Of a stretch of DNA of 49,968 bases, positions 12,903-25,771 are shown piece by piece (the stretch's first letter is position 1; every line of letters begins with the position of its first letter). The notes beneath the pieces were generated by a model. That model searched no databases and was not told the DNA's origin. It was given only the letters and a program-made list of their open reading frames with translations. This DNA comes from Lawsonibacter sp. (lineage in GTDB: Bacteria > Bacillota > Clostridia > Oscillospirales > Oscillospiraceae). The DNA lies in NCBI GenBank assembly GCA_045604585.1, contig JAZUOI010000065.1:1-49968 (forward strand), given 5' to 3'. The position numbers were made by a program, and so were the translations under genes.

Positions 12903-12975
12903 TTCTGCGGGTTTCGTGCCCGGGAAGGGGAGGGAAACGCGAAGCCTGATTGGCGTATCGTGACGCAGAACGAAA

Positions 12976-13298
12976 AAAAGACCCGCCACCCGAGTGGGTG
13001 ACAGGATGGGGACCCCGCACGAGCCCAACGAAGTGGGTCGTGTGGGGAAAGGACGAGCGGCAGAATGAATGAACGTCCGCATTTATGCGGATGTGAACGA
13101 TATGCCGCCCGCGAGGACGCGGCACGCCCGAAGGGACGCAGCCGCTTGCGCGTCTGCCGTCCTTGCGGCATAGCCGCTGCGGACTTCGCGGCGCATGGCA
13201 TGCCCCCGGCATGCCATGTGACCGCCGCTCACCCTCTCAGGGTTCGGGCCCCTTCGTGCGAGAAGAACAAAAGACCCGCCACCCGAGTGGGTGACAGG
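12976..13298. repeat. tRNA-linked repeat block
   Basis: 30-bp direct repeat AAAAGACCCGCCACCCGAGTGGGTGACAGG at 12976-13005 and 13269-13298; 17-bp extra copy of tRNA-Arg 3' end at 13121-13137; inverted T-arm copy at 13240-13260. Confidence 0.8.
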
Positions 13299-13300
13299 TC

Positions 13301-13348
13301 TTTTGGCACGCCCGAAGGGACTCGAACCCCCAACTTTCAGAACCGGAA
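13301..13348 (-). repeat. att site: duplicated 3' end of tRNA-Arg(CCG)
   Basis: 48-bp exact match to 25611-25658. Confidence 0.95.
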
Positions 13349-13390
13349 GCAGGGCAGAATGAAACGGCGTATCCATTGCGGCTGTAGTTA

Positions 13391-14497
13391 TCAGCCGCTT
13401 TTTTCTTTCTCGTTTCCACCGGACTTTCCACCAGTCCCGTCCAAAAGGGCAATGCCGGCATGGAGTGTACCGCTGTCCCGGTGGGTATAGATGTTGGCAG
13501 TGGTCTGGATGTCGGAGTGGCCCATCAGCTCCTTGGCCACATTGAGGGGAACGCCGGCGCGCTGCAGGTCGGTGCAGAAGGTGTGCCGCAGGCAGTAGGG
13601 AGTTAGATCCGGGGCGACCTTGCTCTCAGTGATCTTGTTCCGCTCCAGCTTAGCCCCAAGGTAAATGTCCAGATCGCGCTTAAAGCCTGTCCACAGGCGG
13701 CGCATGCTGTTTTCGTTCTGACGGTTTCCAGCCTGCGTGGGAAAGACAGGGGAGAAGGGCCGTCCCTGGGCCTCTCTGAGCCTCCAGGCAAGGTCAGAGT
13801 GTATGGGGATGTCCCGAACCCCTGCGGCCGTCTTGGGGCCTTTAATGGCCGTGGAGCCGCTTTCTTTGGCGGCGTGTATGTGGATCTCGTTGTGGGCGAA
13901 GTCAACATCAGCCCAGGTCAAAGCCGCCGTCTCACCCGGTCTCATGCCGGTGTAGAGTAAAGTCAAGATCCAGAGACCGGAGCGGTGATGCTCTGCCACG
14001 GCCAGGATTGCCTTGCGTTCCTCCTCTGTGATAGATCTCCGGCGTCCCTCTGTGACGGTGGGTAGTTCCAGTGTCTCTGCCGGATCGTAGATGATAAGCC
14101 GGGACTGTCTGGCACGCTTGAACATCTCCTGCAGTACCATGCGGATCTTCTTCACATGGGAGACAGAGCGGCCGGCCTGTTGGTTGAGGATCTTCTGAAG
14201 GTGGGCATCCCTTACGTCTCTCAGCTTCATGTGGCCCACCCTGGGCTTGATGTACTTGGTGTACTTCTCGTCATACATCCCCAGAGATTTGGCGGTCAGG
14301 CCTTTTGGCTCTTTGTAGAGGGTTTTCCACTGTTTGTACCAGGTGTCCACGCTCATGGAGCCAGAGATCGTTTCCTCGCCACGCTTGGCAGCGGCCAGCT
14401 TCTCTGCCAGCTTGGTCATAGCCTCCAACTCGGTCTTGCCGGTGGCCTCGTACTTCTTGCCGTTGTACCGGGCAGTCTTTCGGATATAGTTTGCCAC
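13391..14497 (-). CDS. tyrosine recombinase/integrase
   Basis: YTGMRPGE (R), PKT (K), YCLRHTF, MGHSDIQTTANIY (H,Y); GTG start with AAGGAG RBS; adjacent to att. Confidence 0.95.
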   Translation of the reverse strand: MANYIRKTARYNGKKYEATGKTELEAMTKLAEKLAAAKRGEETISGSMSVDTWYKQWKTLYKEPKGLTAKSLGMYDEKYTKYIKPRVGHMKLRDVRDAHLQKILNQQAGRSVSHVKKIRMVLQEMFKRARQSRLIIYDPAETLELPTVTEGRRRSITEEERKAILAVAEHHRSGLWILTLLYTGMRPGETAALTWADVDFAHNEIHIHAAKESGSTAIKGPKTAAGVRDIPIHSDLAWRLREAQGRPFSPVFPTQAGNRQNENSMRRLWTGFKRDLDIYLGAKLERNKITESKVAPDLTPYCLRHTFCTDLQRAGVPLNVAKELMGHSDIQTTANIYTHRDSGTLHAGIALLDGTGGKSGGNEKEKSG

Positions 14498-14515
14498 GTT
14501 TGTCTCCTTTCGTAT

Positions 14516-14635
14516 TTGACACCGTGGCCCGGAAAGGATATAATAATGGGCGCACTGGTGCCGTATGATTTGATCGTCTGTGGTATTTGTGCATCGCCGC
14601 CTTCGGTGTTGGTAGCACCGGGGGCGGTTTTCTTA
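14516..14635 (+). ncRNA. candidate antisense small RNA unit (promoter plus ~85-nt transcript plus terminator)
   Basis: TTGACA-17-TATAAT (14516-14544) followed by hairpin CCGCCTTCGGTG/CACCGGGGGCGG and T-tract; no ORF between. Confidence 0.55.
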
Positions 14636-14637
14636 TT

Positions 14638-14958
14638 TTAGGCAAATTCGGTATGCAGGGTCTTCCACTTTTTCAGTTTGATGCTCAGCCAAAAACCGTA
14701 GATTCCAAAAGTGATGATTGTCAGAACAAACCACTTGATCCAGTTTCCGAACAGCTGCAGGGCGGTGCCGGTGAACTTCAGTCTCTGGCCGTTGATCACG
14801 GTATGCTTGATTTCCCAATTGTAAATCATGCAGCATGCCCAAGGGTAGCAGATTCCGAGCGTACAGACGGTAACGAGTGCGCCTAAGATTCCCCAACCGA
14901 TTAACTGCAGCAGGCCTCCGTCGAAGTATGATTTTTGGGTTTCTACTTTGATTTCCAT
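14638..14958 (-). CDS. small membrane protein, DUF898/YjgN-like
   Basis: Two internal repeats (FDGGLLQLIGW..TLGI.YPW / FTGTALQLFGNW..TFGIYGFW); GAGGAG RBS. Confidence 0.7.
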   Translation of the reverse strand: MEIKVETQKSYFDGGLLQLIGWGILGALVTVCTLGICYPWACCMIYNWEIKHTVINGQRLKFTGTALQLFGNWIKWFVLTIITFGIYGFWLSIKLKKWKTLHTEFA

Positions 14959-15013
14959 AAATGCATTTCTCCTCTCTATATTTCCGCCTCCGATGCCAGA
15001 GGCGGTTTTTGAT

Positions 15014-15889
15014 TTATTCGTCCACAGGGAGCTTGAGCTGATTGTGCATGTAATTCAGCTCCCGAGCGCCCTTGCTCTCTGAGAGCGTTTTCATCTGATA
15101 GACCACGGTTTCGCGCAACTTTTGAAGGCGTGCTTGCTGAGGAACACCTTGCTCAATGAGGAAGGCATTGAGGTTTTCCAGGTTGGTCAGCACAAGCAGC
15201 TGCTCAATGGTGGCATAGTCCCGCATATTGCCCTTCACGCCGGGATTTTCTGCGCGCCATTGCTTGGCGGTTTTTCCGAACAGCGCTACATTCAGCACAT
15301 CGGCCTCATCGGCATAGACATAACCCTGCTGTGGCTTGGGCAGCTCCGGCAGGATCAGGTTGTCCTTGATGGCATCAGTGTGAATTCGATAGTTCGTGCT
15401 GGCCAGAATGCGCTTGACGTTCCAATCCAGTGCGAGCCGGTGGCTCTCATCACCCTTTAAGCGCTGGTAGTCCTTGATGATATACAGCTTGAACTCCGGG
15501 GAGATCCAGGAGGCGAATTCAAAGGCAATATCCTTGTGTGCCAGAGTGGCGGCGTATCGGCCTTGCTTTGAGGTAATGCCAATGGCCTGCGTATCGTGAA
15601 TCCATTTCTTGGGGGTCATGGCAAAACTGTTTGCACCGGAGGCATCTCTAATTGCCTCGAATTCGATGCAATTAAAATTCGGGTTGTTGAGCTGCTCCCA
15701 TAGCCCTAAGAATTCTATGGTTCCCCGGTTACGCATCCAGTTCTGAATGACATATCCCGGTAGTTCGGGATTATGGTACTTGGCAATATCGGTCAGCGAA
15801 ATATAGTCGTCTTCGCTGCCAACTGTGGTGACAACGGCAATTTCTACACCGCTTGCGTGGATGATACTCTCTACTTTTTTAGCACTCAT
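15014..15889 (-). CDS. KilA-N domain DNA-binding protein
   Basis: DYISLTDIAK, NWMRNRGTIEFLGLWE, AHKDIAFEFASWISPEF; ATG 15889 after AAGGAG. Confidence 0.85.
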   Translation of the reverse strand: MSAKKVESIIHASGVEIAVVTTVGSEDDYISLTDIAKYHNPELPGYVIQNWMRNRGTIEFLGLWEQLNNPNFNCIEFEAIRDASGANSFAMTPKKWIHDTQAIGITSKQGRYAATLAHKDIAFEFASWISPEFKLYIIKDYQRLKGDESHRLALDWNVKRILASTNYRIHTDAIKDNLILPELPKPQQGYVYADEADVLNVALFGKTAKQWRAENPGVKGNMRDYATIEQLLVLTNLENLNAFLIEQGVPQQARLQKLRETVVYQMKTLSESKGARELNYMHNQLKLPVDE

Positions 15890-15943
15890 ATGCGGCACTC
15901 CTTTCTGCCCTGGGCTTGCGCCTGGGGCGTTTTTTGATGGGTC

Positions 15944-16543
15944 TTAGTTATTCAGCGCATCGGGATACACCACAGATTCAATGACATCATTAGATGCGGC
16001 GTCGATAATCTGAATATCGCAGTGAGCCTCCACGTTGGCAAACATCTGATAGATTGCAGCTTGCAGGTACACACCGAACGGGACAAACGCAGCAGCGAAC
16101 CCGGCGGCATCATATCCTGCCTTATCAACACTGATTTTGACGGAAGTAAAGTCCTTCGAATAGTCGATTGCGGTAATGTAGGGGGTATCCTCGGCCTTGA
16201 CCATACCGTCAAAGGCATCGGTGACCGTCTTGGCTGTTTCGGCCATGATTTCCTTATGCTTGGCCTTGGACATGGTCACTTTGATGGAGCCATCCTCGTT
16301 GACAACGGCCTTCTTAAAGCCCTGCTCTGCGGCATAGGCTTCAGGGTCAAAGGTAGACATATCCGTACCCTCAAAGAAAGACGCAGGCATCGTAATCTCC
16401 ACAGAGAGCAGGCTTTCGTCCACCTCAACTCCGCCACCGGAACTGGAAGCGGAACTTTGGGCGTTGTTGCCGCCACCGCACCCAGACAGGGACAGAAGCA
16501 ACATGGTGCTGGCGAGAGTGATAGAGATTGCGCGTTTGAACAT
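15944..16543 (-). CDS. lipoprotein of unknown function
   Basis: Signal peptide with lipobox LSGC then Gly/Ser linker. Confidence 0.8.
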   Translation of the reverse strand: MFKRAISITLASTMLLLSLSGCGGGNNAQSSASSSGGGVEVDESLLSVEITMPASFFEGTDMSTFDPEAYAAEQGFKKAVVNEDGSIKVTMSKAKHKEIMAETAKTVTDAFDGMVKAEDTPYITAIDYSKDFTSVKISVDKAGYDAAGFAAAFVPFGVYLQAAIYQMFANVEAHCDIQIIDAASNDVIESVVYPDALNN

Positions 16544-16588
16544 AATAGTATCCTCCTTTGCCCTGGCTCACGCCTGGGGCGTTTTTAT

Positions 16589-17038
16589 TTAGCTATTCAG
16601 TGCCAGATAGTTGTTATAAGCCAGCTCCTGAAGCATCTTGTACAGTCCCTGAATGTTATATTTTTTCGGGAACTCATATTTTTTGCTGCCGAGCTGCAGA
16701 TTGTGTGCCTTCATATTGGGCGTGATGATGTAATCAATGGTCAATTCGCTATCATCCAGGCCAAAGCCGGCGGTTTCGGCGGTAACATGGTAGACCGACC
16801 TAAGGTTAATTGAATCTACGCGCATTTTCTGGCCGGTGGCACCCTGCTTGTCAAAACTCATGATGCGCTTGTCGGTGATAATGACCACGTCACGGACCAG
16901 CTTGAAGCCGACTTGGATGGATTCGCCACTCATCAGATACATTCCGAATTCCTTTTCGAGAGCTGCTGGATCAACCTCGCTCATGTTGCCGAGCAATCCT
17001 TGAATGACGCTTCCGCCTAATTTGTCCATAATTCCCAT
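16589..17038 (-). CDS. bacterial PH-domain protein (bPH_1/YvbH-like)
   Basis: FKLVRDVVIITDKRIMSFDKQGATGQK, ETAGFGLDDSEL. Confidence 0.8.
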   Translation of the reverse strand: MGIMDKLGGSVIQGLLGNMSEVDPAALEKEFGMYLMSGESIQVGFKLVRDVVIITDKRIMSFDKQGATGQKMRVDSINLRSVYHVTAETAGFGLDDSELTIDYIITPNMKAHNLQLGSKKYEFPKKYNIQGLYKMLQELAYNNYLALNS

Positions 17039-17074
17039 AATATTTTCCTCCTTGTCCGGCTCCGGCCGGATTTT

Positions 17075-17503
17075 TTATTTGTCTTCGGTCTTCCGGTAGT
17101 CTGGGATCTTCGTCAGCTCCTCAACGCGTTCTACGGCCACTTGCTGGCCTTTGGGGTTGAGCTCGTCAAATGAAGCGAGAAGTTTAGATTGAGCGGAGTC
17201 GTTGCTTCGGTGTACTTCGTGGTTTTCGTCTTCAAGGATACGATCAAACCAAGGAAACAAGCTTTGGATGCCGTTGCTTACTTGGGCTCCCGACATACCA
17301 GCCAACCGGGCAAGACTCTGTAGTTCGTCTATGTCCACTTGCAGCACTAAGCACAAGCGAGCGAAAATCTCATCCCTTGGGATTCGCTGGTTGCTTTCAT
17401 ATCGACTAATTGCAGTTTTTGTTGTATAGACAGCAGCAGCAAGAGCTTCTTGCGTCATTCCTGCCCTTTTTCTTGCAGCTTTAAGCTGCTCGCCGAAGGT
17501 CAT
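17075..17503 (-). CDS. Xre/cI-like repressor
   Basis: FGEQLKAARKRAGMTQEALA...ISRYE HTH; C-terminal LNPKGQQVAVERVEEL; ATG 17503 with GAGGTG RBS. Confidence 0.88.
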   Translation of the reverse strand: MTFGEQLKAARKRAGMTQEALAAAVYTTKTAISRYESNQRIPRDEIFARLCLVLQVDIDELQSLARLAGMSGAQVSNGIQSLFPWFDRILEDENHEVHRSNDSAQSKLLASFDELNPKGQQVAVERVEELTKIPDYRKTEDK

Positions 17504-17524
17504 AATGCTCACCTCACAATGACT

Positions 17525-17620
17525 ATTATAGCCGATGTTACCACAAAGTCAACTTTTTTTCAAAAACCTGTTGACAAAAAGTTGCCGATATGGTTACAAT
17601 TGTGTTGCCGATGCGGTAAC
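17525..17620. promoter_or_regulatory. divergent switch promoters with three 17-bp operator-like palindromes
   Basis: Minus TTGACT-16-TATAAT; plus TTGACA-18-TACAAT; GTTACC-N5-GTCAAC (17537), GTTGCC-N5-GGTTAC (17581), GTTGCC-N5-GGTAAC (17604). Confidence 0.7.
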
Positions 17621-17639
17621 ACCGGGAGGAGGTGAAGAA

Positions 17640-17831
17640 GTGAGAATTAACCGAGAGCGCTTTGCGGTTGCCATGGTGCGGCACGATTTGAACGGCGAAA
17701 AACTGGCTTCGTTGTCTGGTGTGTCCCGGTACACCATCACGGCTGTCAAGAATGGCAAGAGCTGCAGCAAAGAGACAGCGGACAAGCTGGCGGCAGTCTT
17801 GGGCCGCAATATCATTGAAAAGGAGGATTGA
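17640..17831 (+). CDS. Cro-like HTH protein
   Basis: GTG start after GGAGGAGG; LASLSGVSRYTITAVKNG HTH; divergent from repressor. Confidence 0.8.
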   Translation: MRINRERFAVAMVRHDLNGEKLASLSGVSRYTITAVKNGKSCSKETADKLAAVLGRNIIEKED

Positions 17832-17834
17832 GCT

Positions 17835-18482
17835 TTGAGCAAAGTAATTGATTTGACAGGAATGCGGTTCGGTAGATTAACCGTGCTCGGTCGGGCAGAA
17901 AACAGGGATCGAAAGAGAGCTATGTGGCTTTGCAAGTGTGATTGTGGGGACGAAAAGATTGTATGGGGGTATTCATTACGGTCGGGGCGCACGGTTTCGT
18001 GCGGCTGCTACAACCGCGACAAATGCATTCGACAGCACACCACACACGGGCTGTCCTCCACACGAATTTATAATATCTGGACCGGAATGAAGGACAGGTG
18101 TATCAACAAATCCAATCCAAGGTGGAGGCATTACGGCGAATCTGGCGTTGAGGTGTGCAATGAGTGGAGGGAAGATTTTAAGGCGTTCTATGATTGGGCC
18201 GTATCTCACGGCTACCGGGACGATTTAACCATTGAGCGGATTGACGTCAGAAAGGGTTATAGTCCCGATAATTGCCGATGGGCGACATGGGCAGAACAGG
18301 CCGGAAACAAAAATAACAGCACGGCTGTTACTATCAATGGCGAAACACACACGGTTGCGGAATGGGCCAGAATTGCTGGCGTTTCGTATAATTATCTTTA
18401 CAAAAAATATGCGTCTTTCGCACGCGTAGCCTGTCCGGCGCTGGGCTGTGACCCGGCCGACATTCTGGAAGGAGGAAACTAA
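17835..18482 (+). CDS. phage HNH-like (beta-beta-alpha-metal) endonuclease family protein
   Basis: DLTGMRFGRLTV, WLCKCDCG, SCGC, LTIERID..YSPDNCRWAT. Confidence 0.7.
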   Translation: MSKVIDLTGMRFGRLTVLGRAENRDRKRAMWLCKCDCGDEKIVWGYSLRSGRTVSCGCYNRDKCIRQHTTHGLSSTRIYNIWTGMKDRCINKSNPRWRHYGESGVEVCNEWREDFKAFYDWAVSHGYRDDLTIERIDVRKGYSPDNCRWATWAEQAGNKNNSTAVTINGETHTVAEWARIAGVSYNYLYKKYASFARVACPALGCDPADILEGGN

Positions 18483-18713
18483 ATGGCAGCACTGTACGCA
18501 GAAATCCGCGAGAAGGAAGAGGAGATCTTCCGGCGGAACAAGAACAAGGCTACGCTATCCCGCGCCGCTCTGGCCAGGGAGCTGGGAGCCGGTGAGATCG
18601 TGGCTCAGAAGTGGGCGGAGGAGCGGGGGATAGGCATTCCTATCGGTGCTCGTGTCCGCTACGAGGTCCGGCAGGTGGCAAAGCACATCGTTCAAGAAAG
18701 GGGAATGTACTGA
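18483..18713 (+). CDS. small DNA-binding (wHTH/Xis-like) protein
   Basis: LSRAALARELG..RVRYEVRQVA; GGAGG RBS. Confidence 0.55.
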   Translation: MAALYAEIREKEEEIFRRNKNKATLSRAALARELGAGEIVAQKWAEERGIGIPIGARVRYEVRQVAKHIVQERGMY

Positions 18714-19000
18714 TGAAAACGGAATGGAACATCCAGGCAAGGGCGTTTCCTGTTACTGTCCACGACCACAGTACCGGGCAGGAGCGGGAGGAGCAGATCG
18801 TGCTGACAAAGGAGCAGCTGCAGGCTGCCCAAATCGTCGGCCAGAGCAGCAAGGAGCTGATTGGCCGTCTGTGTGAGCGTGCCGGCCTGACTGTGCTGGA
18901 GATTGGCAAACCGGAAAAGCGGGAGATCAGCCTGAACATGGAGGAACTGTTTAAGTTCCACGGTATCGCCATGGCAGGGAAGCGGGAGGCGGTCATGTGA
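18713..19000 (+). CDS. hypothetical protein
   Basis: MKTEWNIQ start overlapping upstream stop (TGATG); stop overlaps helicase start. Confidence 0.65.
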   Translation: MKTEWNIQARAFPVTVHDHSTGQEREEQIVLTKEQLQAAQIVGQSSKELIGRLCERAGLTVLEIGKPEKREISLNMEELFKFHGIAMAGKREAVM

Positions 19001-20430
19001 GCGAGAATGTTTCCATGAAACCCGCCGATTTTTCCGATGCCGGAAACGCCGCTGTATTTGTTCGGGAGTATCGAGATGATCTTATCTACACCGATTCCAT
19101 GGGCTGGCTCTGCTGGGACGGAAAGCGGTGGGAGCGCAACGAGCACAAGGCGCTGGAACTGGCCGAAGAGTTCTCACTGAAAATGCTGGAGGAGGCAAGC
19201 TCCTTAAACCGTGAGGCAGCGCACACTCTGGCGGATCTGACCGCAGATAAGGCGGAGGGAGAAAAGGATAACGAAGCATTGGAGCAGGCAAAGCGGGAAC
19301 AAAAGAGTGCTAAGGCATACCTCCAGCACGCTATGCTGACCCGGCGGGCCGCGCGGATCCGCGCCGTTCTCGATCTGGCAAGGCCATATATGGTCATACC
19401 CGGTAGCATGATGGACGCTGACCCGTGGGATCTAAATACACAGGCCGGGATCATCAACCTTGTTACCGGCGATTGGCGCATGAATGAGCGCGCCGCATAC
19501 TGCACGAAAATTACCAGTGCCGCCCGGAGTACAGAGGGTGCGGAGCTGTGGGAGCAATTTCTTGACACCATTACCTGTGAGGATAACAGCTTAAAAGGTT
19601 TCCTCCAACTGGTAATCGGAATGGCGATGTTCGGGAAGGTTTACCACGAAGGAGTCACTTTTGCCGTAGGTGACGGAAAAAATGGAAAAAGCACATTTTT
19701 CAATGCCGTTGGCAAGGTTTTGGGCGACTACACTGGGTACATAAACATTGATGTGATTACTACCAAGGGAGCGAACGACAAGGCGGCTCTGTCCACCCTG
19801 CGCGGCAAGCGGCTGGTGATCGCCGGAGAGCTGGAAGAAGGGCGGCGGCTATCTTCCGCCACCATTAAGAAGATCGCCAGCACAGACCCCTTCCAGGTGG
19901 AGGAAAAGTACAAGCAGCCGGAAACGGTAGTCCCGTCCCATACCTTGTGCCTGTTCACAAACCACTTGCCCCACGTCAGCGCCACGGATGATGGCACATG
20001 GCGGCGCATCATTGTGATACCCTTTAACGCTACGATCCCCAAGAACGAGGCAATTCAGAATTACGCCGATTATCTTGTTGAGAAAACTGGTGGCGCGATC
20101 CTTGCCTGGGCGGTAGAGGGGGCGCAGAACTTTGCTCGAAATAAATTCCATTTGACCATCCCGGACGCTGTGGCGGAGATCACGGATGCTTACCGGAGCC
20201 GGGAGAACTGGCTGACCAACTTTATCGATGACCGCTGTATTGTCGAAAAGGGCGCACGCATTGGTGCTCGGGAGCTGTATACAGCTTATAAGAATTGGGC
20301 GGCGGAGATGGGGGAGTATGTCCGTAGCGAAAAGGATTTTTCACACGAGATGGAGCGAAGCGGAGTGAAAAAGCTGTCATCACGGGGATCGAATTATTAT
20401 ATCGACCTTCGGTTATTGCTCTACTGTTGA
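18997..20430 (+). CDS. P4/D5-family primase-helicase C-terminal type protein (D5_N plus SF3 helicase)
   Basis: SDAGNA, WLCWDGKRW, Walker A GDGKNGKST, TNHLP, DDGTWRRI. Confidence 0.9.
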   Translation: MSENVSMKPADFSDAGNAAVFVREYRDDLIYTDSMGWLCWDGKRWERNEHKALELAEEFSLKMLEEASSLNREAAHTLADLTADKAEGEKDNEALEQAKREQKSAKAYLQHAMLTRRAARIRAVLDLARPYMVIPGSMMDADPWDLNTQAGIINLVTGDWRMNERAAYCTKITSAARSTEGAELWEQFLDTITCEDNSLKGFLQLVIGMAMFGKVYHEGVTFAVGDGKNGKSTFFNAVGKVLGDYTGYINIDVITTKGANDKAALSTLRGKRLVIAGELEEGRRLSSATIKKIASTDPFQVEEKYKQPETVVPSHTLCLFTNHLPHVSATDDGTWRRIIVIPFNATIPKNEAIQNYADYLVEKTGGAILAWAVEGAQNFARNKFHLTIPDAVAEITDAYRSRENWLTNFIDDRCIVEKGARIGARELYTAYKNWAAEMGEYVRSEKDFSHEMERSGVKKLSSRGSNYYIDLRLLLYC

Positions 20431-20515
20431 GTCTGTGGAGGCAAAAACCTAAACTTTTCCTAATACACTTTTATTTTGCTTTTGTGAAAAGTTATAGTAC
20501 AGGCTCCACAGACTC
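20429..20515. other. putative replication origin of the element
   Basis: Perfect 12-bp inverted repeat GAGTCTGTGGAG/CTCCACAGACTC flanking an AT-rich core with nested AACTTTTC/GAAAAGTT, directly after helicase gene. Confidence 0.6.
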
Positions 20516-20535
20516 CGCACCAACCCCGCAAACCA

Positions 20536-20808
20536 TTGCAAACGCTGAAAGGAGTTAAAACAATAAGGCACGATGAAATCACGCAGATTATCCCTGCACC
20601 TGCAGGTATGTATGCAAAACACGCAGGAGAGTACAACGGAGAAAAGTATGAATGCTATGTTCCGGTTGTCTGTCTTGCTCTTATGGAGAATCAGCTTGGC
20701 TCTCGCTATATCCTGCCCATGAGCATAGATGTGGATGGGTATATCGAGGAAGCTGGTAGGACTGATGACTTTAACGGTATCGTCTGGAGGGAGTACCCCA
20801 ATGAATAA
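20536..20808 (+). CDS. hypothetical protein (start uncertain)
   Basis: ORF in operon; AAGGAG sits before an in-frame ATA rather than ATG. Confidence 0.5.
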   Translation: MQTLKGVKTIRHDEITQIIPAPAGMYAKHAGEYNGEKYECYVPVVCLALMENQLGSRYILPMSIDVDGYIEEAGRTDDFNGIVWREYPNE

Positions 20809-20980
20809 CAAAATCTGTCCCCTGCTGTCTGCCTGTGACGCAGAAAGCAATCACTATTGCGAAGAAGGGCGCTGTGCTTGGTGGATACCGCCGCTCGGTC
20901 CCCGCAGTGAAGGCCGCTGTGCGAGCCAGATGTTGGGCGCGGCCATGCCGGAGCTGATAAAGGCGGTGAATGAGATTTGA
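20801..20980 (+). CDS. small Cys-rich hypothetical protein
   Basis: MNNKICPLL..C..C..CAWW; GGAGG RBS; overlaps neighbours. Confidence 0.6.
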   Translation: MNNKICPLLSACDAESNHYCEEGRCAWWIPPLGPRSEGRCASQMLGAAMPELIKAVNEI

Positions 20981-21162
20981 GTTACTACCGATCCTGTCCC
21001 ATCTGCGGGGCGAACCTGGACCCCGGCGAAGCCTGCGACTGCCGGGACGAAAAAACCGCCGCCGATGCTACGAACATCGACGACGGCAAGGCGGAACGGG
21101 ATTTGACAGCCCCTAATTCCGCCTCCAGTGTAAACGAAAACAAGGAGGAAAGTCAAGTATGA
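20977..21162 (+). CDS. small zinc-ribbon phage-type protein
   Basis: YYRSCPICGANLDPGEACDC. Confidence 0.7.
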   Translation: MSYYRSCPICGANLDPGEACDCRDEKTAADATNIDDGKAERDLTAPNSASSVNENKEESQV

Positions 21163-21416
21163 ATGAGCCGAATATTCAGCCTATCAATATGGATGGCGTG
21201 TGGTTTGAATTGCGGGGTCTGGTTGCTGTTCTTGAGATGATTAGCGTTGGTCTGAGCGATGATTGCGCACAGATTGACGGCAACGAGGAGTATCCGAAAG
21301 ATAGTTGGAGGCATATTTGCGTTGCCAATAACGCTAAGAATGTATACAGCCCCGCTCTGGATCACGTTCACGGTCAACTTCACGATCTCCTTGCCAGAGT
21401 GGGCGTATCAAAATGA
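21159..21416 (+). CDS. hypothetical protein
   Basis: AAGGAGG RBS, ATGA overlaps at both ends. Confidence 0.65.
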   Translation: MNEPNIQPINMDGVWFELRGLVAVLEMISVGLSDDCAQIDGNEEYPKDSWRHICVANNAKNVYSPALDHVHGQLHDLLARVGVSK

Positions 21417-21595
21417 AAGTCACGATTACGTATTTGCCCGAGGAGGAGCGAGAGGCCAGAATGGCAAAAGCCTTTATTCGCGAACTGTGCGACAATGTGA
21501 GATGCAAAGAACGCGACACCCACCCACCATATAAACACATCTACTTAGCGACCAAGAAACCCGGAAAATGTACAGATACAGAGGAAAATCATTGA
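21413..21595 (+). CDS. hypothetical protein
   Basis: ATGA overlap with upstream gene; MKVTITYLPEEE..PYKHIYL. Confidence 0.6.
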   Translation: MKVTITYLPEEEREARMAKAFIRELCDNVRCKERDTHPPYKHIYLATKKPGKCTDTEENH

Positions 21596-21720
21596 CTATA
21601 ACCTGTGTATGTGGTACACTTGTTCTAAAGATATAGGCATGAGTACCGCCCGCAAGGGTTAGCCGTCAACAGACAGGCATGGGAAACAGTTTTGACACTG
21701 TTCTCATGCCTGTTTTCTTT
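21592..21720 (+). promoter_or_regulatory. promoter plus structured leader/terminator (candidate sRNA or attenuator)
   Basis: TTGACT-17-TACACT with TG extension; hairpin ACAGGCATGGGAAACAG/CTGTTCTCATGCCTGT plus T-tract. Confidence 0.55.
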
Positions 21721-21804
21721 TCCCTGGGGCGGGGGCTTACTCCTCTCCTCCGCTCCGGGGAATCTCGTAACAAAAGAAGGAGTAAATAAAGGAGGAATAA
21801 AATT

Positions 21805-22482
21805 ATGAATCAGATCATCGCTGACAACCGGCACAAGATTGACACTGCCTGCCAGCTCTGCTTTTATGCGTTGGATAAGTACCACAAAGCCTGCCAGACG
21901 TTCAACGAGGAAAAGCGGAGGATCGCCGCTACTCCCTACATCCAGCAGGAACAGGAGCGCATGGTGAACAAGGCCGCAGAAACCCTGAGCAATGCCGCGA
22001 ACGGTCATTATGCAGAAATCAAGAAAGACCTGGGCATGATCCGGGAAGCGGCCAATGAGATGGAGGGGGTGCTGGACATTGGGGAGGATCTTCAGAACAC
22101 CCTTGCTGTGGTCAAGTCCCTGGGCAAAGATGCCCCCAATGAGATCCTGTGGAAGCTGGTGGAACAGTTCAAGGGCCAGCGTCAGGCACTCATCATCCTG
22201 AAGACCGCCTACGAGGCCGCCGGCGTCAATGCTGAGCATTATTTCAAAGGGACGATCTTCTCCGCGTCCAGCGTCCTGGACGACCTGGATGAACAGGCAT
22301 ACCGCATCGTGGTTCAGCCCGGAGATAATATTGCTGTGGCTGTAAGCTTTGGCGACCAGCTGGAGAAGCTTGCGGAATCCCTGGGCGTTCAGCCAACAAA
22401 GAAATTCAGAGACATCGTCGACACTTCTGATGCCTTTAATGCCCAGCTCCTGGCAGCTATGGGGCTGGGTACAGCTGATTGA
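21805..22482 (+). CDS. hypothetical alpha-helical protein
   Basis: 225-aa ORF, strong AAGGAGG RBS, coiled-coil-like composition. Confidence 0.8.
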   Translation: MNQIIADNRHKIDTACQLCFYALDKYHKACQTFNEEKRRIAATPYIQQEQERMVNKAAETLSNAANGHYAEIKKDLGMIREAANEMEGVLDIGEDLQNTLAVVKSLGKDAPNEILWKLVEQFKGQRQALIILKTAYEAAGVNAEHYFKGTIFSASSVLDDLDEQAYRIVVQPGDNIAVAVSFGDQLEKLAESLGVQPTKKFRDIVDTSDAFNAQLLAAMGLGTAD

Positions 22483-22564
22483 TTTTGTGGGCGCGTGGGA
22501 CATATCCTGCGCGCCCCTACTTTGCATTATATTTAGGTGATTTTTCTATATAAGGGGGAGTCAT

Positions 22565-23221
22565 ATGCAGCGGACACATGGGACGGTGGAGAACTGCGAG
22601 CGCATAGACTCCTTTGAAGCCATGCGCTGCTCAGAGGGCTGTGACGCAGGGATTTCTGCCGGTGATCTGTGGCTTGATTGCGATCATTATGTTCTCCAGC
22701 GGGGAGAGGATAAAAGAGAGATCGTGCATCTGTACTATCCCGGCAGCAGATGGAATCAGGAGCTGAGACTTGTCCGGATCGACAGCGGTTTTGGCGGCAC
22801 AAGGGCCTATTGGCTTTGTCCGGCGTGTGGGGAGCGGTTTCGTTATCTGTACTTCAACCGGCGCTTTCTCTGCCGCAAGTGCGCGGAGTTGAACTATAAG
22901 TGCCAGCAGGAAACACAGAACAGCCAGAGTGATCTCCGAAAGGGAATGAAGATAGCAGGGGAGCGTTTGGGGTGGTTTTCTCTCCGGCCTGTCTCTCGCA
23001 CGGAATTTGTGGGCCTGTTCCCGGCAAAGCCAAAGGGGATGCACTGGAAAACATATGTAAAGCACCTTGCGCGGCTTAGGAAATACCAGGATCAGTGCGG
23101 TGAAAAAGACACGCACACATTGCTGAAGGGGCTAAAATCCCTTGGGGGCTTTGGGTGGGTTCTTGACGGAATTACAGATTGTATGGTGGGAGGCTCACAT
23201 GGACTGGAAGACAACGACTAA
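22565..23221 (+). CDS. zinc-finger hypothetical protein
   Basis: GFGGTRAYWLCPAC, FLCRKC, KPKGMHWKTY; GGGGAG RBS. Confidence 0.7.
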   Translation: MQRTHGTVENCERIDSFEAMRCSEGCDAGISAGDLWLDCDHYVLQRGEDKREIVHLYYPGSRWNQELRLVRIDSGFGGTRAYWLCPACGERFRYLYFNRRFLCRKCAELNYKCQQETQNSQSDLRKGMKIAGERLGWFSLRPVSRTEFVGLFPAKPKGMHWKTYVKHLARLRKYQDQCGEKDTHTLLKGLKSLGGFGWVLDGITDCMVGGSHGLEDND

Positions 23222-23849
23222 CGAGGAATTGGCGCTGTTAATCCAAGCTGGGGAACGGGACAGGATACCGCAGCTATGGGAGCAGGTCCGCCGCTTTATC
23301 GAACGGCAGTCGAGACGGTGGGTTTACCATCTGGAAGGGAAGGGTGGCGTCACGGCGGAAGATCTGTCGCAGGCCGGTTTCTTTGCGCTCCTGCGAGCCG
23401 TAGAAAGCTTTGACCCAGCACAAGGATATAAGTTGCTCGCTTACCTCAAACTCCCGTTGAAGACGGAATTTAACCGCGCCACGGGGTATAAGACGAAACG
23501 TGACCGTCTGGACCCGCTTCAGGACTACATCAGTGCAGATGTGCTGGTGGGGGAGGAAGAGGACACGCCCTTGCTGGATCTGTTGGCTGACCCTGCGGCG
23601 GAACTGGGCTATGCTGAGATAGAGGAGAAAGATCGCAGGGCGGCAGTTCAAGAGTTGCTTTCGTGCCTTAGTGAGTCGCAGAGGAGCGTAATTCGGGCAA
23701 GGTATTGGTATGAACTCACCTTTGAGGAAACAGCCAAGTCGCTTGGCGTGGATAAAAAGGAGGCAGTAAAGTTGGAGCAGCAGGCCTTGCGCACGCTGCG
23801 CCATCCTGCGAACAGGGAGAAACTAATGAGATGTGGGTACTCCGCTTGA
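23199..23849 (+). CDS. sigma-70 family alternative sigma factor
   Basis: TNEELA, region 2 EDLSQAGFFALLRAVESFDP, region 4 LTFEETAKSLGV..EQQALRTLR; GGAGG RBS. Confidence 0.85.
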   Translation: MDWKTTTNEELALLIQAGERDRIPQLWEQVRRFIERQSRRWVYHLEGKGGVTAEDLSQAGFFALLRAVESFDPAQGYKLLAYLKLPLKTEFNRATGYKTKRDRLDPLQDYISADVLVGEEEDTPLLDLLADPAAELGYAEIEEKDRRAAVQELLSCLSESQRSVIRARYWYELTFEETAKSLGVDKKEAVKLEQQALRTLRHPANREKLMRCGYSA

Positions 23850-23870
23850 CCTGTTCCACTGCAGCGCAAA

Positions 23871-24473
23871 TTGGAACGTGCCATCCGCACCCAGAAACGC
23901 CGCATATTGACCGCCGAGGCAACTGGGGATAAAGAGACGCTTTCGGTCGCGCAAACGCGCTTGCAGGTTCTCAGGCAGGAATACAGCCAGTTTTCTAAGG
24001 TTGCTGGACTGCGGACGGAAAACGAGCGTGCGCAAGTGGCTGGGTTTGGGCGAAAACAAGCAGCAAAAGCAAGCGCTTCAGTTAAATCCATTGAAAAGCA
24101 GAGACATTTGGAGTATAATAGAAAGCAAGAAGAAACCCGCGTTCTGATCTTCTCGGACAAAACAGTCAAGACGATCAACACTGGGCATCAGAACAAACAC
24201 ATCAAGACCTCGAAAGGGTATATCCCTGGTCGCAGCTATATTTACGGCGATGTGGAAACAGCCCAGCGTCTGGTGGATAAATACCATGGGACGGGGCAGC
24301 TCGTTTTCAACAGAAAGGGCGAATGGGCCAAAAGAGAGACGGTTACACACGACAGTGCAATCGGTGTCTGTGTTGACCCGTCCACTCTGGCCGAAATGGT
24401 GACCCGGAGATTTACCATCCATTATGGCAAGAACGGATCGCACATAGTACCTGCGAAGGAGTTGGAAGCATGA
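23871..24473 (+). CDS. N-terminally truncated phage minor-capsid protein with polymorphic toxin type 50 (Ntox50) domain
   Basis: ERAIR..KR..EYSQFSKVAGLR..ERAQV resembles minor capsid C-terminus; QNKHI..GRSY..LVDKYHGTG..FTIHYGKNGSHIVP resembles Ntox50; no clear RBS. Confidence 0.7.
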   Translation: MERAIRTQKRRILTAEATGDKETLSVAQTRLQVLRQEYSQFSKVAGLRTENERAQVAGFGRKQAAKASASVKSIEKQRHLEYNRKQEETRVLIFSDKTVKTINTGHQNKHIKTSKGYIPGRSYIYGDVETAQRLVDKYHGTGQLVFNRKGEWAKRETVTHDSAIGVCVDPSTLAEMVTRRFTIHYGKNGSHIVPAKELEA

Positions 24474-24679
24474 ATTTGAGAGAAAGCGCAAATCTGAATT
24501 GGTGCAAGCTCGTTCGCGTAACAATGACGGACGGAGAACTGCAGATGGGAAAGCTGGTTGGTTATACATCCGCATTGGACAACGAGCCTGACCCCGAGAG
24601 CATCACGCTCGAAAAGGAGCGCGGAATGCTCGTAGAGCTGTATGCCGATGAGATTGCCGCCGTTGTGACAGATGGTTGA
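24470..24679 (+). CDS. putative immunity protein for the Ntox50 toxin
   Basis: Small acidic ORF, ATGA overlap with toxin stop, AAGGAG RBS; YTSALDNEPDPESI. Confidence 0.6.
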   Translation: MNLRESANLNWCKLVRVTMTDGELQMGKLVGYTSALDNEPDPESITLEKERGMLVELYADEIAAVVTDG

Positions 24680-24691
24680 TGGGGGTGCGCC

Positions 24692-24814
24692 ATGACAGAG
24701 GCCACCATCAAGGCCATCGAAGCCATCCTTGCCAAGGACGACCGGGTTGAACTGATCCCCACCCGGGACGGCGTCAAGGTCGTCCGCATCAAGAGGGAGC
24801 CGATAAAAACTTAA
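24692..24814 (+). CDS. 40-aa phage-type hypothetical protein
   Basis: MTEATIKAIEAILAKDDRVELIPTRDGVKVVRIKREPIKT after GGGGGTG; below ORF-track cutoff. Confidence 0.55.
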   Translation: MTEATIKAIEAILAKDDRVELIPTRDGVKVVRIKREPIKT

Positions 24815-24854
24815 TATGTACCTCGCCCTAAGTGGTGGGCGGGAAGAGCTAAGT

Positions 24855-24897
24855 GGAGCTGACCATCTGGAATTTCCGGATAGTTGGCTCCTTTTTT
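24855..24897 (+). terminator. intrinsic terminator ending rightward operon
   Basis: GGAGCTGAC..GTTGGCTCC stem followed by T7. Confidence 0.6.
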
Positions 24898-24975
24898 GTT
24901 GATTTCAGGCCGTTGCCTGTTTTCATACCATCTTTGACCGGTCCATGTCGAGAAACTGGGCGCCGGTGACGCTCC

Positions 24976-25239
24976 TCACTTCGGTGTAACGCCGTGGTAT
25001 TCGATGCCAAAGGCTTCACACAACTGTCGGTCATTGAAATAACGTTGTGCCAGGACACGCACCTCCGCAACTGTAAACGTACTTGGCTCCTTGATGCGGC
25101 GGTAATAGGTTCGCTGGCAGCCAGGGAATATCTGAGCTGTGTCGATGTCCTTTTCGCCTCTCATGGTCTGACCGAAGCGTAGTGCTGCCAAAAGCGCCCG
25201 ATCCTGCCTCTGGGCAGCGGTTAAAGTTACTCTGGGCAT
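24976..25239 (-). CDS. small HTH-like phage protein
   Basis: MPRVTL..RTYYRRIKEPSTFTVAEVR; AAGGAG RBS. Confidence 0.65.
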   Translation of the reverse strand: MPRVTLTAAQRQDRALLAALRFGQTMRGEKDIDTAQIFPGCQRTYYRRIKEPSTFTVAEVRVLAQRYFNDRQLCEAFGIEYHGVTPK

Positions 25240-25243
25240 GAGG

Positions 25244-25462
25244 TTATCTCCTTTCCTTTTTTGTAGCGGCCCTTCCGACTTCTGCATTCATTTCAAACTC
25301 CACCAGGTCAGACAGCCGGAATACATACGGTCCATTACGTTGGCCACCGAGATTCAGTGCGGTCATTCGTCCTTGGCGCACCCAGTGCTGCACGGTGCCT
25401 GTAGCCACTCGATAGCGCTTGGCCACTTCTTCGGTTGTATACACAGGTTCGTTGAAGTTCAT
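25244..25462 (-). CDS. excisionase-like (MerR/HTH_17) protein
   Basis: YTTEEVAKRYRVATGTVQHWVRQGRM..YVFRLSDL; AAGGAGG RBS; next to att. Confidence 0.8.
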   Translation of the reverse strand: MNFNEPVYTTEEVAKRYRVATGTVQHWVRQGRMTALNLGGQRNGPYVFRLSDLVEFEMNAEVGRAATKKERR

Positions 25463-25613
25463 GGTGTCACCTCCTTCCAAGATTTTTTCCACCACCATTT
25501 CCACCACCGAAACGTCCGAAACAGGGCAAAAACGGAATTGTTTTCCATGCTGGCAGACGCAACAAAAAACCCCGGAAGCCTTATAAATCAAGGTTTCCGA
25601 GGTTTTTCTGTTT

Positions 25614-25689
25614 TGGCACGCCCGAAGGGACTCGAACCCCCAACTTTCAGAACCGGAATCTGACGCTCTATCCATTGAACTACGGACGC
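25614..25689 (-). tRNA. tRNA-Arg(CCG)
   Basis: GCGTCCG..CGGGCGT-GCCA acceptor, anticodon arm TCAGA-TTCCGGT-TCTGA, GGTTCGAGTCC; promoter TTTACT-17-TATAAT at 25743-25715. Confidence 0.96.
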
Positions 25690-25771
25690 ATGGGGCGCTC
25701 ATCAGCGCCAAGTCATTATAGCAGGAACGAGAAGAAAAGTAAAGAGGAAAAAACGCGCTTTTTTTGACACC

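Follow-up and report, generated by a model that had tools for sequence, protein, structure and literature searches.

The window analysed here is a stretch of 49,968 nucleotides from a Lawsonibacter sp. genome (assembly GCA_045604585.1, contig JAZUOI010000065.1) that is 80% complete and lies in 172 contigs. In it, an integrated satellite-like element carries, directly behind its sigma-70-family gene, a block of DNA from the head module of a phage, with the end of a capsid-toxin gene and a small gene downstream of it. We describe this block and consider whether the element uses it as an immunity gene. The features of the locus, by position in the window, are:

13301..25658, no strand: integrated satellite-like element, 12,358 bp, at tRNA-Arg(CCG), between 48-bp direct repeats
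23199..23849, (+): the element's complete sigma-70-family gene (216 aa), which ends in its native TGA (23847-23849) and has a strong Shine-Dalgarno (SD) sequence
23850..24056, (+): tail of a MuF2 (Phage_min_cap2) domain, from a profile match
23860..24965, (+): block of phage origin, 1,106 bp, with 93.9% identity to phage contigs L001/L002
24091..24119, (+): predicted sigma-70 promoter, TTGAAA-17-TATAAT, 11/12 matches, in the capsid-toxin linker and also in the donor
24174..24473, (+): Ntox50 domain (BECR fold, YxiD-like predicted tRNase), frame intact
24470..24679, (+): predicted immunity protein, 69 aa, PHROG 1865, ATGA overlap with the toxin stop, SD pairing -8.3 kcal/mol
24692..24814, (+): 40-aa phage gene, PHROG 29211, with an SD
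24819..24866, (+): gut-2 RNA motif RF02990, 48.3 bits (cut-off 39.8)
24855..24897, (+): predicted intrinsic terminator, a long hairpin then U6; z -4.5 for 24812-24905
24910..24965, (+): 5' portion of the leader of the phage scaffold gene, truncated after GGCGCCG

Alignment with viral contigs showed that the block was captured from a phage head module, and that its ends can be mapped closely. It matches L001 and L002 at 1039 of 1107 alignment columns and is the only block common to the window and both contigs, which encode the toxin piece at 94% identity. With DNA so nearly identical to a phage head module, the capsid-toxin content after the sigma gene goes far beyond what chance would give. 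The donor region in L002 holds terminase, portal, 516-aa minor capsid-toxin, scaffold and major capsid genes. In terms of L002, the block consists of the final 204 codons of the capsid-toxin gene (the first 312 are absent), a 69-aa gene, the 40-aa gene and the scaffold-gene leader. The left break coincides with an ATG inside the phage gene, in whose place the element has CTG at the junction, and the right end is about 50 nt upstream of the position of the scaffold ATG in the donor. There is no stop or frameshift in the genes of the block relative to L002. Neither portal nor terminase has a match on the source contig, so the block does not adjoin head-module genes, and neither a second copy of the toxin cassette nor a full-length toxin gene was found in the 80%-complete assembly.

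At the protein level, residues 5-48 of the open reading frame (ORF) behind the sigma gene match the final 44 positions of Phage_min_cap2 (E 7e-6; 25.6 bits, slightly below the cut-off of 26.3). Only profile positions 321-364 of 366 are covered; the full N-terminal PF06152 domain is absent here and present in L002. PHROG 581, 'minor head protein', spans residues 5-204. An earlier note, made from the letters of the DNA, had read the locus as a phage cassette captured by a satellite, with the C-terminal part of a minor capsid protein, and both points held up. Its extent for the cassette, 23847..24679, was right in content but too short, because the unit runs on to 24965 and includes a promoter, the 40-aa gene, the gut-2 RNA and a terminator that the note did not mention.

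The frame of the sigma gene stays open for 207 codons past its TGA, to a TGA at 24471-24473, as the earlier note had reported. A truncated sigma was considered and rejected; sigma homologues stop at about the same position. The sigma protein P0058, from a sister element without the block, ends at the identical stop residue, and in sequencing run X1 this sister (the P0058 contig, 1,628 bp) matches the window to 23856, past the sigma stop, and then continues into other DNA. Because the blockless sister shares this stop, the stop is older than the insertion of the block. A nonsense mutation in a former sigma-toxin fusion was likewise rejected. The earlier note had also offered read-through of the UGA, which would yield a 424-aa sigma-toxin protein. 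The continuous frame fits this, and in E. coli a UGA with C as the next base is prone to read-through, but the stop is native, the bases of the sister match through it, and the shared frame is weak evidence because an in-frame junction arises one time in three by chance. There were 0 fused homologues among 5,338 longer candidates, which is weak evidence, and the capsid-toxin gene of a second satellite, G460, comes with a ribosome site of its own, 26 nt past the sigma stop. We consider read-through very improbable. Logan contigs and the protein collection were the sole sources of sister elements; no close sister was found in viral contigs, GTDB contigs or the 60 relatives searched, and JGI metagenomes gave sigma homologues of 23-36% identity only, none with the block.

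Contigs from 6 of 24 sequencing runs were aligned to the locus as a check on the junctions. No RNA data set was listed as containing the locus, which has no bearing on its expression. The left junction recurs in two other runs, as variants. A 151-nt record from run X9 lies over it with 45 and 106 letters on each side and 5 differences, and a 7,794-bp contig from run X6 reaches 30 letters beyond it, with 19 differences in 390; this contig is one letter short of our bridging rule. Run X4 holds the phage form of the region. The fragmented state of the genome, together with a right junction (24965) that is bridged by no contig among the six runs, would fit an assembly chimera of the element and a co-occurring phage. 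However, the X9 and X6 records cross the left junction and a perfect att repeat closes the element, and a chimera is therefore extremely improbable.

Behind the junction, X6 provides only tail alleles of 89-92% identity, with no cover at 24171-24597 (Ntox50 and the immunity gene), although such a gap is not proof of absence. A contig from this run joins 24058 to 24691 through about 595 other letters, that is, a different tip between the same flanks, which suggests that the X6 element may carry another toxin tip. This would be expected if the block were a silent toxin-immunity cassette serving as a recombination template, with its conserved ends (the capsid tail on one side, the 40-aa gene and gut-2 on the other) allowing tips to be exchanged with helper phages. 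In keeping with this, the X6 element has the same junction into the block, a single tail can be followed by very different tips, and cassette swapping has been described for polymorphic toxins (PMC3482391). Yet the swapped contig may belong to a phage and not to the element (depth 20.6 versus 11.2), the filter can drop records, the locus has no full-length toxin gene, and the element would gain nothing from a template unless immunity were expressed. As the main role of the block, this is distinctly unlikely.

The toxin tip belongs, by prediction, among the Ntox50/YxiD-type BECR tRNases, a placement based on both family profile and modelled fold. Residues 109-201 match the whole Ntox50 model (E 2e-31). 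The predicted structure of the tip (predicted local distance difference test, pLDDT, 97.7) aligns with YxiD-CTD (PDB 9V8I) at Z 15.7 and a root-mean-square deviation (rmsd) of 2.0 A over 99 aligned residues with 36% identity, and with MafB2-CT (PDB 8HHJ) at Z 12.6. YxiD is a tRNase that needs K446, H447, H521, K524 and H528 for toxicity (PMC12700104). All five are kept here, as K116, H117, H191, K194 and H198 respectively, and the HxVP motif is also present; one conserved Lys of the family alignment is Arg162, both here and in the donor. These data bear out the Ntox50-like domain with its histidines that had been noticed in the sequence.

Although the toxin frame is intact, we found no obvious way for it to be translated. 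The interval from the sigma stop to His113 contains no in-frame ATG, and its eight in-frame GTG, TTG and CTG codons pair with an SD at -4.0 kcal/mol at best, which agrees with the earlier remark that no ribosome site precedes the toxin. In both the block and the donor, the stretch from the internal promoter to the first catalytic His is free of in-frame ATG, GTG and TTG codons. By contrast, the downstream gene has the good ribosome site and the ATGA coupling noted before (SD -8.3 kcal/mol, overlap at 24470). Because no SD-led start lies ahead of the catalytic histidines, the unit likely yields immunity and not toxin, and the toxin domain is likely untranslated or barely translated, judging from its sequence.

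These observations bear on whether the block could be an addiction or abortive module resembling a toxin-antitoxin system, as the earlier note had also proposed. A little Ntox50 would then be made by re-initiation at CTG 23859 or TTG 23871, or from a weak internal start, and be freed when the element is lost or when a phage shuts off the host. The frame with all five essential residues is consistent with this, as are the positions of the CTG and TTG 10 and 22 nt past the sigma stop. Islets L066, L086 and L210, from the set described below, are broken upstream of the toxin tip and never inside it, and in a sister element the same slot holds what we take to be a HicAB-type pair. However, no candidate start has an SD, PADLOC gave no match, and the tight YxiD-YxxD complex, with a dissociation constant (KD) of about 9.4 nM (PMC12700104), is typical of immunity proteins and not of labile antitoxins. 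The block is also unlike type II toxin-antitoxin systems by sequence, since no toxin start occurs from the operon promoter to His113 and no SD lies upstream; it would thus not be such a system and would work most like an acquired immunity cassette. We regard the addiction module, which lacks a translation signal for its toxin, as unlikely.

The 69-aa protein behaves in silico as a cognate Ntox50 immunity protein. The predicted complex of the toxin with this protein scores 0.80 whereas the best of three controls scores 0.01; contacts agree at 100% between runs, the partner has a pLDDT of 90, and the contacts include K116, H117 and S129. The mark applied was reached by 51 of 78 solved pairs and by 2 of 108 mismatched pairs. 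The Atlas model of a 93%-identical homologue, P0063, has an LSM/Hfq-like fold (template modelling score, TM, 0.77 to an LSM-domain cluster), and YxiD, the closest relative with a solved structure, is likewise blocked by an immunity protein with an Sm-like fold (PMC12700104). The 69-aa protein has no PDB sequence match at E 0.1, none to YxxD, and no DNA-binding domain by profile scan. NCBIfam and PADLOC scans gave no match for the toxin, the 69-aa gene or the 40-aa gene. With these results the PHROG 1865 family gains a predicted role as Ntox50 immunity.

The promoter at 24091-24119 is the sole promoter-like site within 22400-25700. Such a single site is weak evidence alone because 1.9 weaker-threshold sites are expected by chance. 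We surveyed 47 intact capsid-plus-extension genes, reduced to 29 non-redundant ones, for sites of at least 10/12. Of these 29 capsid-toxin genes, 16 have such a promoter on the sense strand of the C-terminal extension, and in 11 it lies no more than 100 nt from the capsid tail. The antisense control gave 1/29, and shuffle controls gave means of 1.5 and 1.4 with maxima of 5 and 7, none of the 500 shuffles reaching 16. Expressed by length, there are 17 sites in 13,518 nt of extension versus 2 in 30,450 nt of capsid-domain coding DNA. Promoters are thus enriched in the extensions, with the proviso that the counts are not independent because the surveyed genes are related. At the other end of the unit, the terminator was missed by a pattern scan and showed up in the z score of 24812-24905. 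Together, these features predict that the captured DNA is a complete transcription unit for the immunity gene, from promoter to terminator.

We also looked for similar pieces in other genomes. Among GTDB loci found with the capsid tail, 11 of 31 are headless pieces among non-phage genes. Viral loci have the full upstream frame in 79 of 80 cases, and the remaining one begins at a contig edge. When 400 family genomes were queried with the whole capsid domain, 35 matches were obtained outside the source genome; eight are C-terminal-only with no portal or terminase nearby, and N-terminal-only pieces outside prophages numbered 0. With portal as the query, 24 of 25 matches have frames of at least 450 aa. 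Terminase was uninformative as a control, since 209 of 401 family genomes hold a resident terminase gene, a close and mostly single-copy homologue. In the source genome this homologue lies among phage-like genes a few kb from glycogen genes (G000:C113:36-12835), a cluster that may be a domesticated PBSX-like element or one like a gene transfer agent (GTA).

In all, 20 headless toxin-immunity islets were found among non-phage genes in related genomes. Counting the present one, a small coupled ORF stands behind the toxin in 21/21 (one doubtful) and the promoter is kept in 14/21. The islets were chosen by eye and include near-duplicates (L059/L066, L087/L088, L207/L210); we left out L085 (the contig ends), L037/L204 (in a prophage) and the duplicates L028=L207, L029=L211, L034=L210 and L036=L208. 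None comes from a record with an isolate title: the 11 GTDB islets are all from bins or metagenome-assembled genomes (MAGs), and the 4 isolate records are intact prophages. Islets L199 and L211 are at tRNA genes and may be decayed prophages. An empty-site search for islets G110 and G106 returned distant relatives only.

Three islets touch CRISPR repeats, where assemblers can mis-join. These capsid-toxin islets (L070:4510-6360, L059:370-1600 and L200:5655-7260) lie between or against CRISPR-like repeats, and the 1.8-kb piece in L070 sits between two of them, resembling a giant spacer. Either spacer-guided recombination or mis-assembly could have produced this arrangement. One islet occurs at two chromosomal sites (L059:1567 and L066:6086; 92% identity over 1,094 nt), with nearly equal right ends inside the scaffold gene, and at L210:6690-8620 two headless toxin-immunity cassettes stand in tandem among host genes.

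The earlier note had asked after other satellites with a different toxin tip, and there is one. G460 (L280) is a tRNA-Leu satellite that has eight genes in common with the present element. Directly behind its sigma gene it carries a whole 560-aa capsid-toxin gene with a different tip, and a 59-aa ORF, with no portal or scaffold gene. The G460 capture (L280 about 12480) and the block in the window (24965) share their end point, an identical GGCGCCG in the scaffold leader; the L001/L002 phage is the only one of the intact loci compared that has a leader of this type.

Our preferred interpretation is that the block is acquired immunity to a virion-borne toxin, likely used by the element as a ready-made immunity gene. 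We put the probability of this at about one half. Of the three functions that the earlier note proposed, immunity fits best because the promoter, ribosome site and terminator bracket the immunity gene and the toxin has no SD-led start. In the proposed sequence of events, the housekeeping polymerase of the host would start near 24126, from the promoter inside the headless toxin gene, and the transcript would run through the immunity gene, the 40-aa gene and gut-2 to the terminator, ending at 24897. The 69-aa protein would be translated from its own SD and would bind and block the Ntox50 nuclease. When a phage delivered Ntox50 from its head, a cell bearing the element would already hold the immunity protein, which would help a satellite travelling in, or competing with, such a phage. 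The toxin sequence would be retained because the promoter is upstream of the toxin within the same gene. In the phage, the promoter could allow immunity to be made in a lysogen, or from freshly injected DNA, at a time when the late head genes are silent, and this would explain how lysogens might express immunity although their late operon is off. Exchange of toxin-immunity pairs with related phages may also be helped by the phage-like ends of the block.

Several points weigh against this interpretation. The packaging and injection of the toxin is a published hypothesis (PMC5576092), and neither a cognate helper prophage or phage nor a cognate toxin in a co-resident prophage, for which the earlier note had suggested looking, was found in this 80%-complete genome. 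The Ntox50 frame shows no decay (2 non-synonymous changes in 232 sites relative to the phage), which recent capture or a translated toxin would fit equally well. The pass of the predicted complex may stem from its resemblance to Ntox50-immunity complexes of known structure. The islets have promoters no more often (14/21) than intact genes do (16/29). The 8:0 count of C-terminal over N-terminal pieces is biased because the N-terminal part is less conserved, and the difference between headless pieces (8/35) and portal fragments (1/25) is not significant (Fisher p 0.067). Finally, the cargo is rare: 21 related sigma genes from 20 other genomes of this genus were compared, and no capsid-toxin block stands in the DNA covered behind them, which was mostly about 1.4 kb long and less than 0.7 kb in 5 loci.

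This rarity also suits a neutral passenger, brought by illegitimate recombination into a variable cargo slot or left as the deletion remnant of a complete G460-like capture; its immunity gene might be expressed but would bring no benefit. In sister elements the slot behind the sigma gene holds unrelated cargo, and other DNA follows in run X1. The values of pN/pS (non-synonymous over synonymous change) relative to L002 are 0.14 for the capsid tail, 0.04 for Ntox50 and 0.29 for the immunity gene, with non-synonymous changes at 6 of 147 sites in the tail versus 2 of 232 in Ntox50 (p 0.06). Even in the capsid tail, which is of no use here, most changes relative to the phage are synonymous, so that most of the divergence is older than the capture and shows no selection after it. 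A passenger accords less well with the junction variants in two other runs, with the second satellite, whose capture covers the same region, sits in the corresponding slot and has an identical right end, or with the islets, which retain the immunity side and not the portal side. On balance we think it fairly unlikely. If the block is a passenger after all, a well-mapped recombination event and the promoter observation remain.

A wider proposition is that capsid (MuF) toxin genes carry a host-type promoter that makes their 3' end a portable immunity unit, and that in these clostridia both satellites and chromosomes have repeatedly captured this unit as immunity to virion-delivered toxins, with exchangeable pairs and a constant position behind the sigma gene in the case of the satellites. 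We offer this tentatively and consider it doubtful in its full form. If true, it would add a new layer of phage defence and give the first genomic footprint of MuF toxins that are truly injected and harm cells. If non-phage elements gain from the promoter-immunity end, MuF toxins must act on prophage-free cells, and their action on cells would become testable with small constructs. The role of MuF toxins has been stated to be unknown (PMC11699363).

As a comparison, MuF2 toxins consist of a PF06152 capsid domain followed by a toxin domain, Ntox50 being one of those named, with a small ORF downstream (Jamet et al. 2017, PMC5576092). The capsid-toxin gene of L002, the donor, is a complete example of this class. 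The block shares the C-terminal toxin domain and the small (<150 aa) downstream ORF (69 aa here) but lacks 312 of 516 codons and has no portal or terminase; with its head missing, it falls outside the MuF toxin family. The same paper places 96% of muf genes in prophages or remnants, and its main text has no mention of a promoter, or of truncated, orphan or satellite forms. MuF toxin-immunity pairs have been characterised (PMC12226406, PMC11699363). The YxiD-YxxD pair of Bacillus subtilis 6633 (PDB 9V8I) has the same toxin fold and essential residues and an Sm-like immunity protein, as is predicted here, and MafB2-CT/MafI2 (PDB 8HHJ) has the same toxin fold. By contrast, YxiD is predicted to be exported by a type VII secretion system (T7SS) and is not fused to a capsid protein (PMC12700104), and YxxD has 109 aa.

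Closer in organisation are the orphan cassettes and polyimmunity loci of Zhang et al. (2012, PMC3482391), in which a headless tip with an immunity gene serves as a swap template or for protection. The headless tip, the immunity gene and the upstream homology to a full toxin are all present here. Orphan cassettes, however, lie in the toxin's own locus, whereas here the pair has moved from phage to satellite and comes with a predicted promoter and terminator of its own; toxin cassettes are absent from polyimmunity loci. The available part of that paper gives no immunity family for Ntox50, and Ntox50 is not mentioned in the accessible part of a BECR preprint (10.64898/2026.08.28.747851). We found no description of satellite capture of a capsid-toxin module, of orphan MuF immunity or of the internal promoter, and no published work on gut-2, in the literature searched, which included few subscription journals and no supplements such as Jamet's tables. 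The locus is of interest mainly for its internal promoter and the recurrence.

Satellites of the phage-inducible chromosomal island (PICI) type are about 12 kb long and have att sites at a tRNA gene, an integrase, divergent regulators, a primase-helicase, an excisionase-like gene and cargo at the end, their known cargo being toxins and anti-phage systems. The present element has this layout. Its 48-bp repeats, at 13301-13348 and 25611-25658, are identical, the tRNA-Arg(CCG) gene at 25614-25689 lies at its right edge, and profile scans identified two divergent helix-turn-helix (HTH) regulators and an HNH gene in addition to:

13391-14497, (-): integrase
18997-20430: P4/D5 primase-helicase
25244-25495, (-): excisionase-like gene

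The PICI-type features of integrase, att repeats at a tRNA, a length of 10-15 kb, divergent regulators and a primase-helicase are thus all present. Unlike PICIs, this copy of the element has no terminase or capsid gene identified by profile scans, although some sisters have one. A 225-aa ORF at 21805-22482 matches TerS below threshold only (E 0.003) and has no Atlas entry, and in the related elements L315, L284, L285, L289, L297 and L298 its slot holds terminase-like or major-capsid-like genes. The element family thus covers several packaging layouts. A short T-rich motif is common to the leader of the 225-aa gene (21690-21720) and the phage scaffold leader, and it also precedes the capsid-like gene in sister L284; it may be a late promoter used by a phage or satellite sigma factor. 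In the left cargo of the element, a KilA-N protein at 15014-15898 (-) matches the PADLOC candidate defence system PDC-S22 (E 3e-128). To the left of the left att repeat (attL) there is a 17-nt partial att-like repeat at 13121 and a 34-nt repeat pair at 12972 and 13265, which suggests an earlier insertion at the same tRNA.

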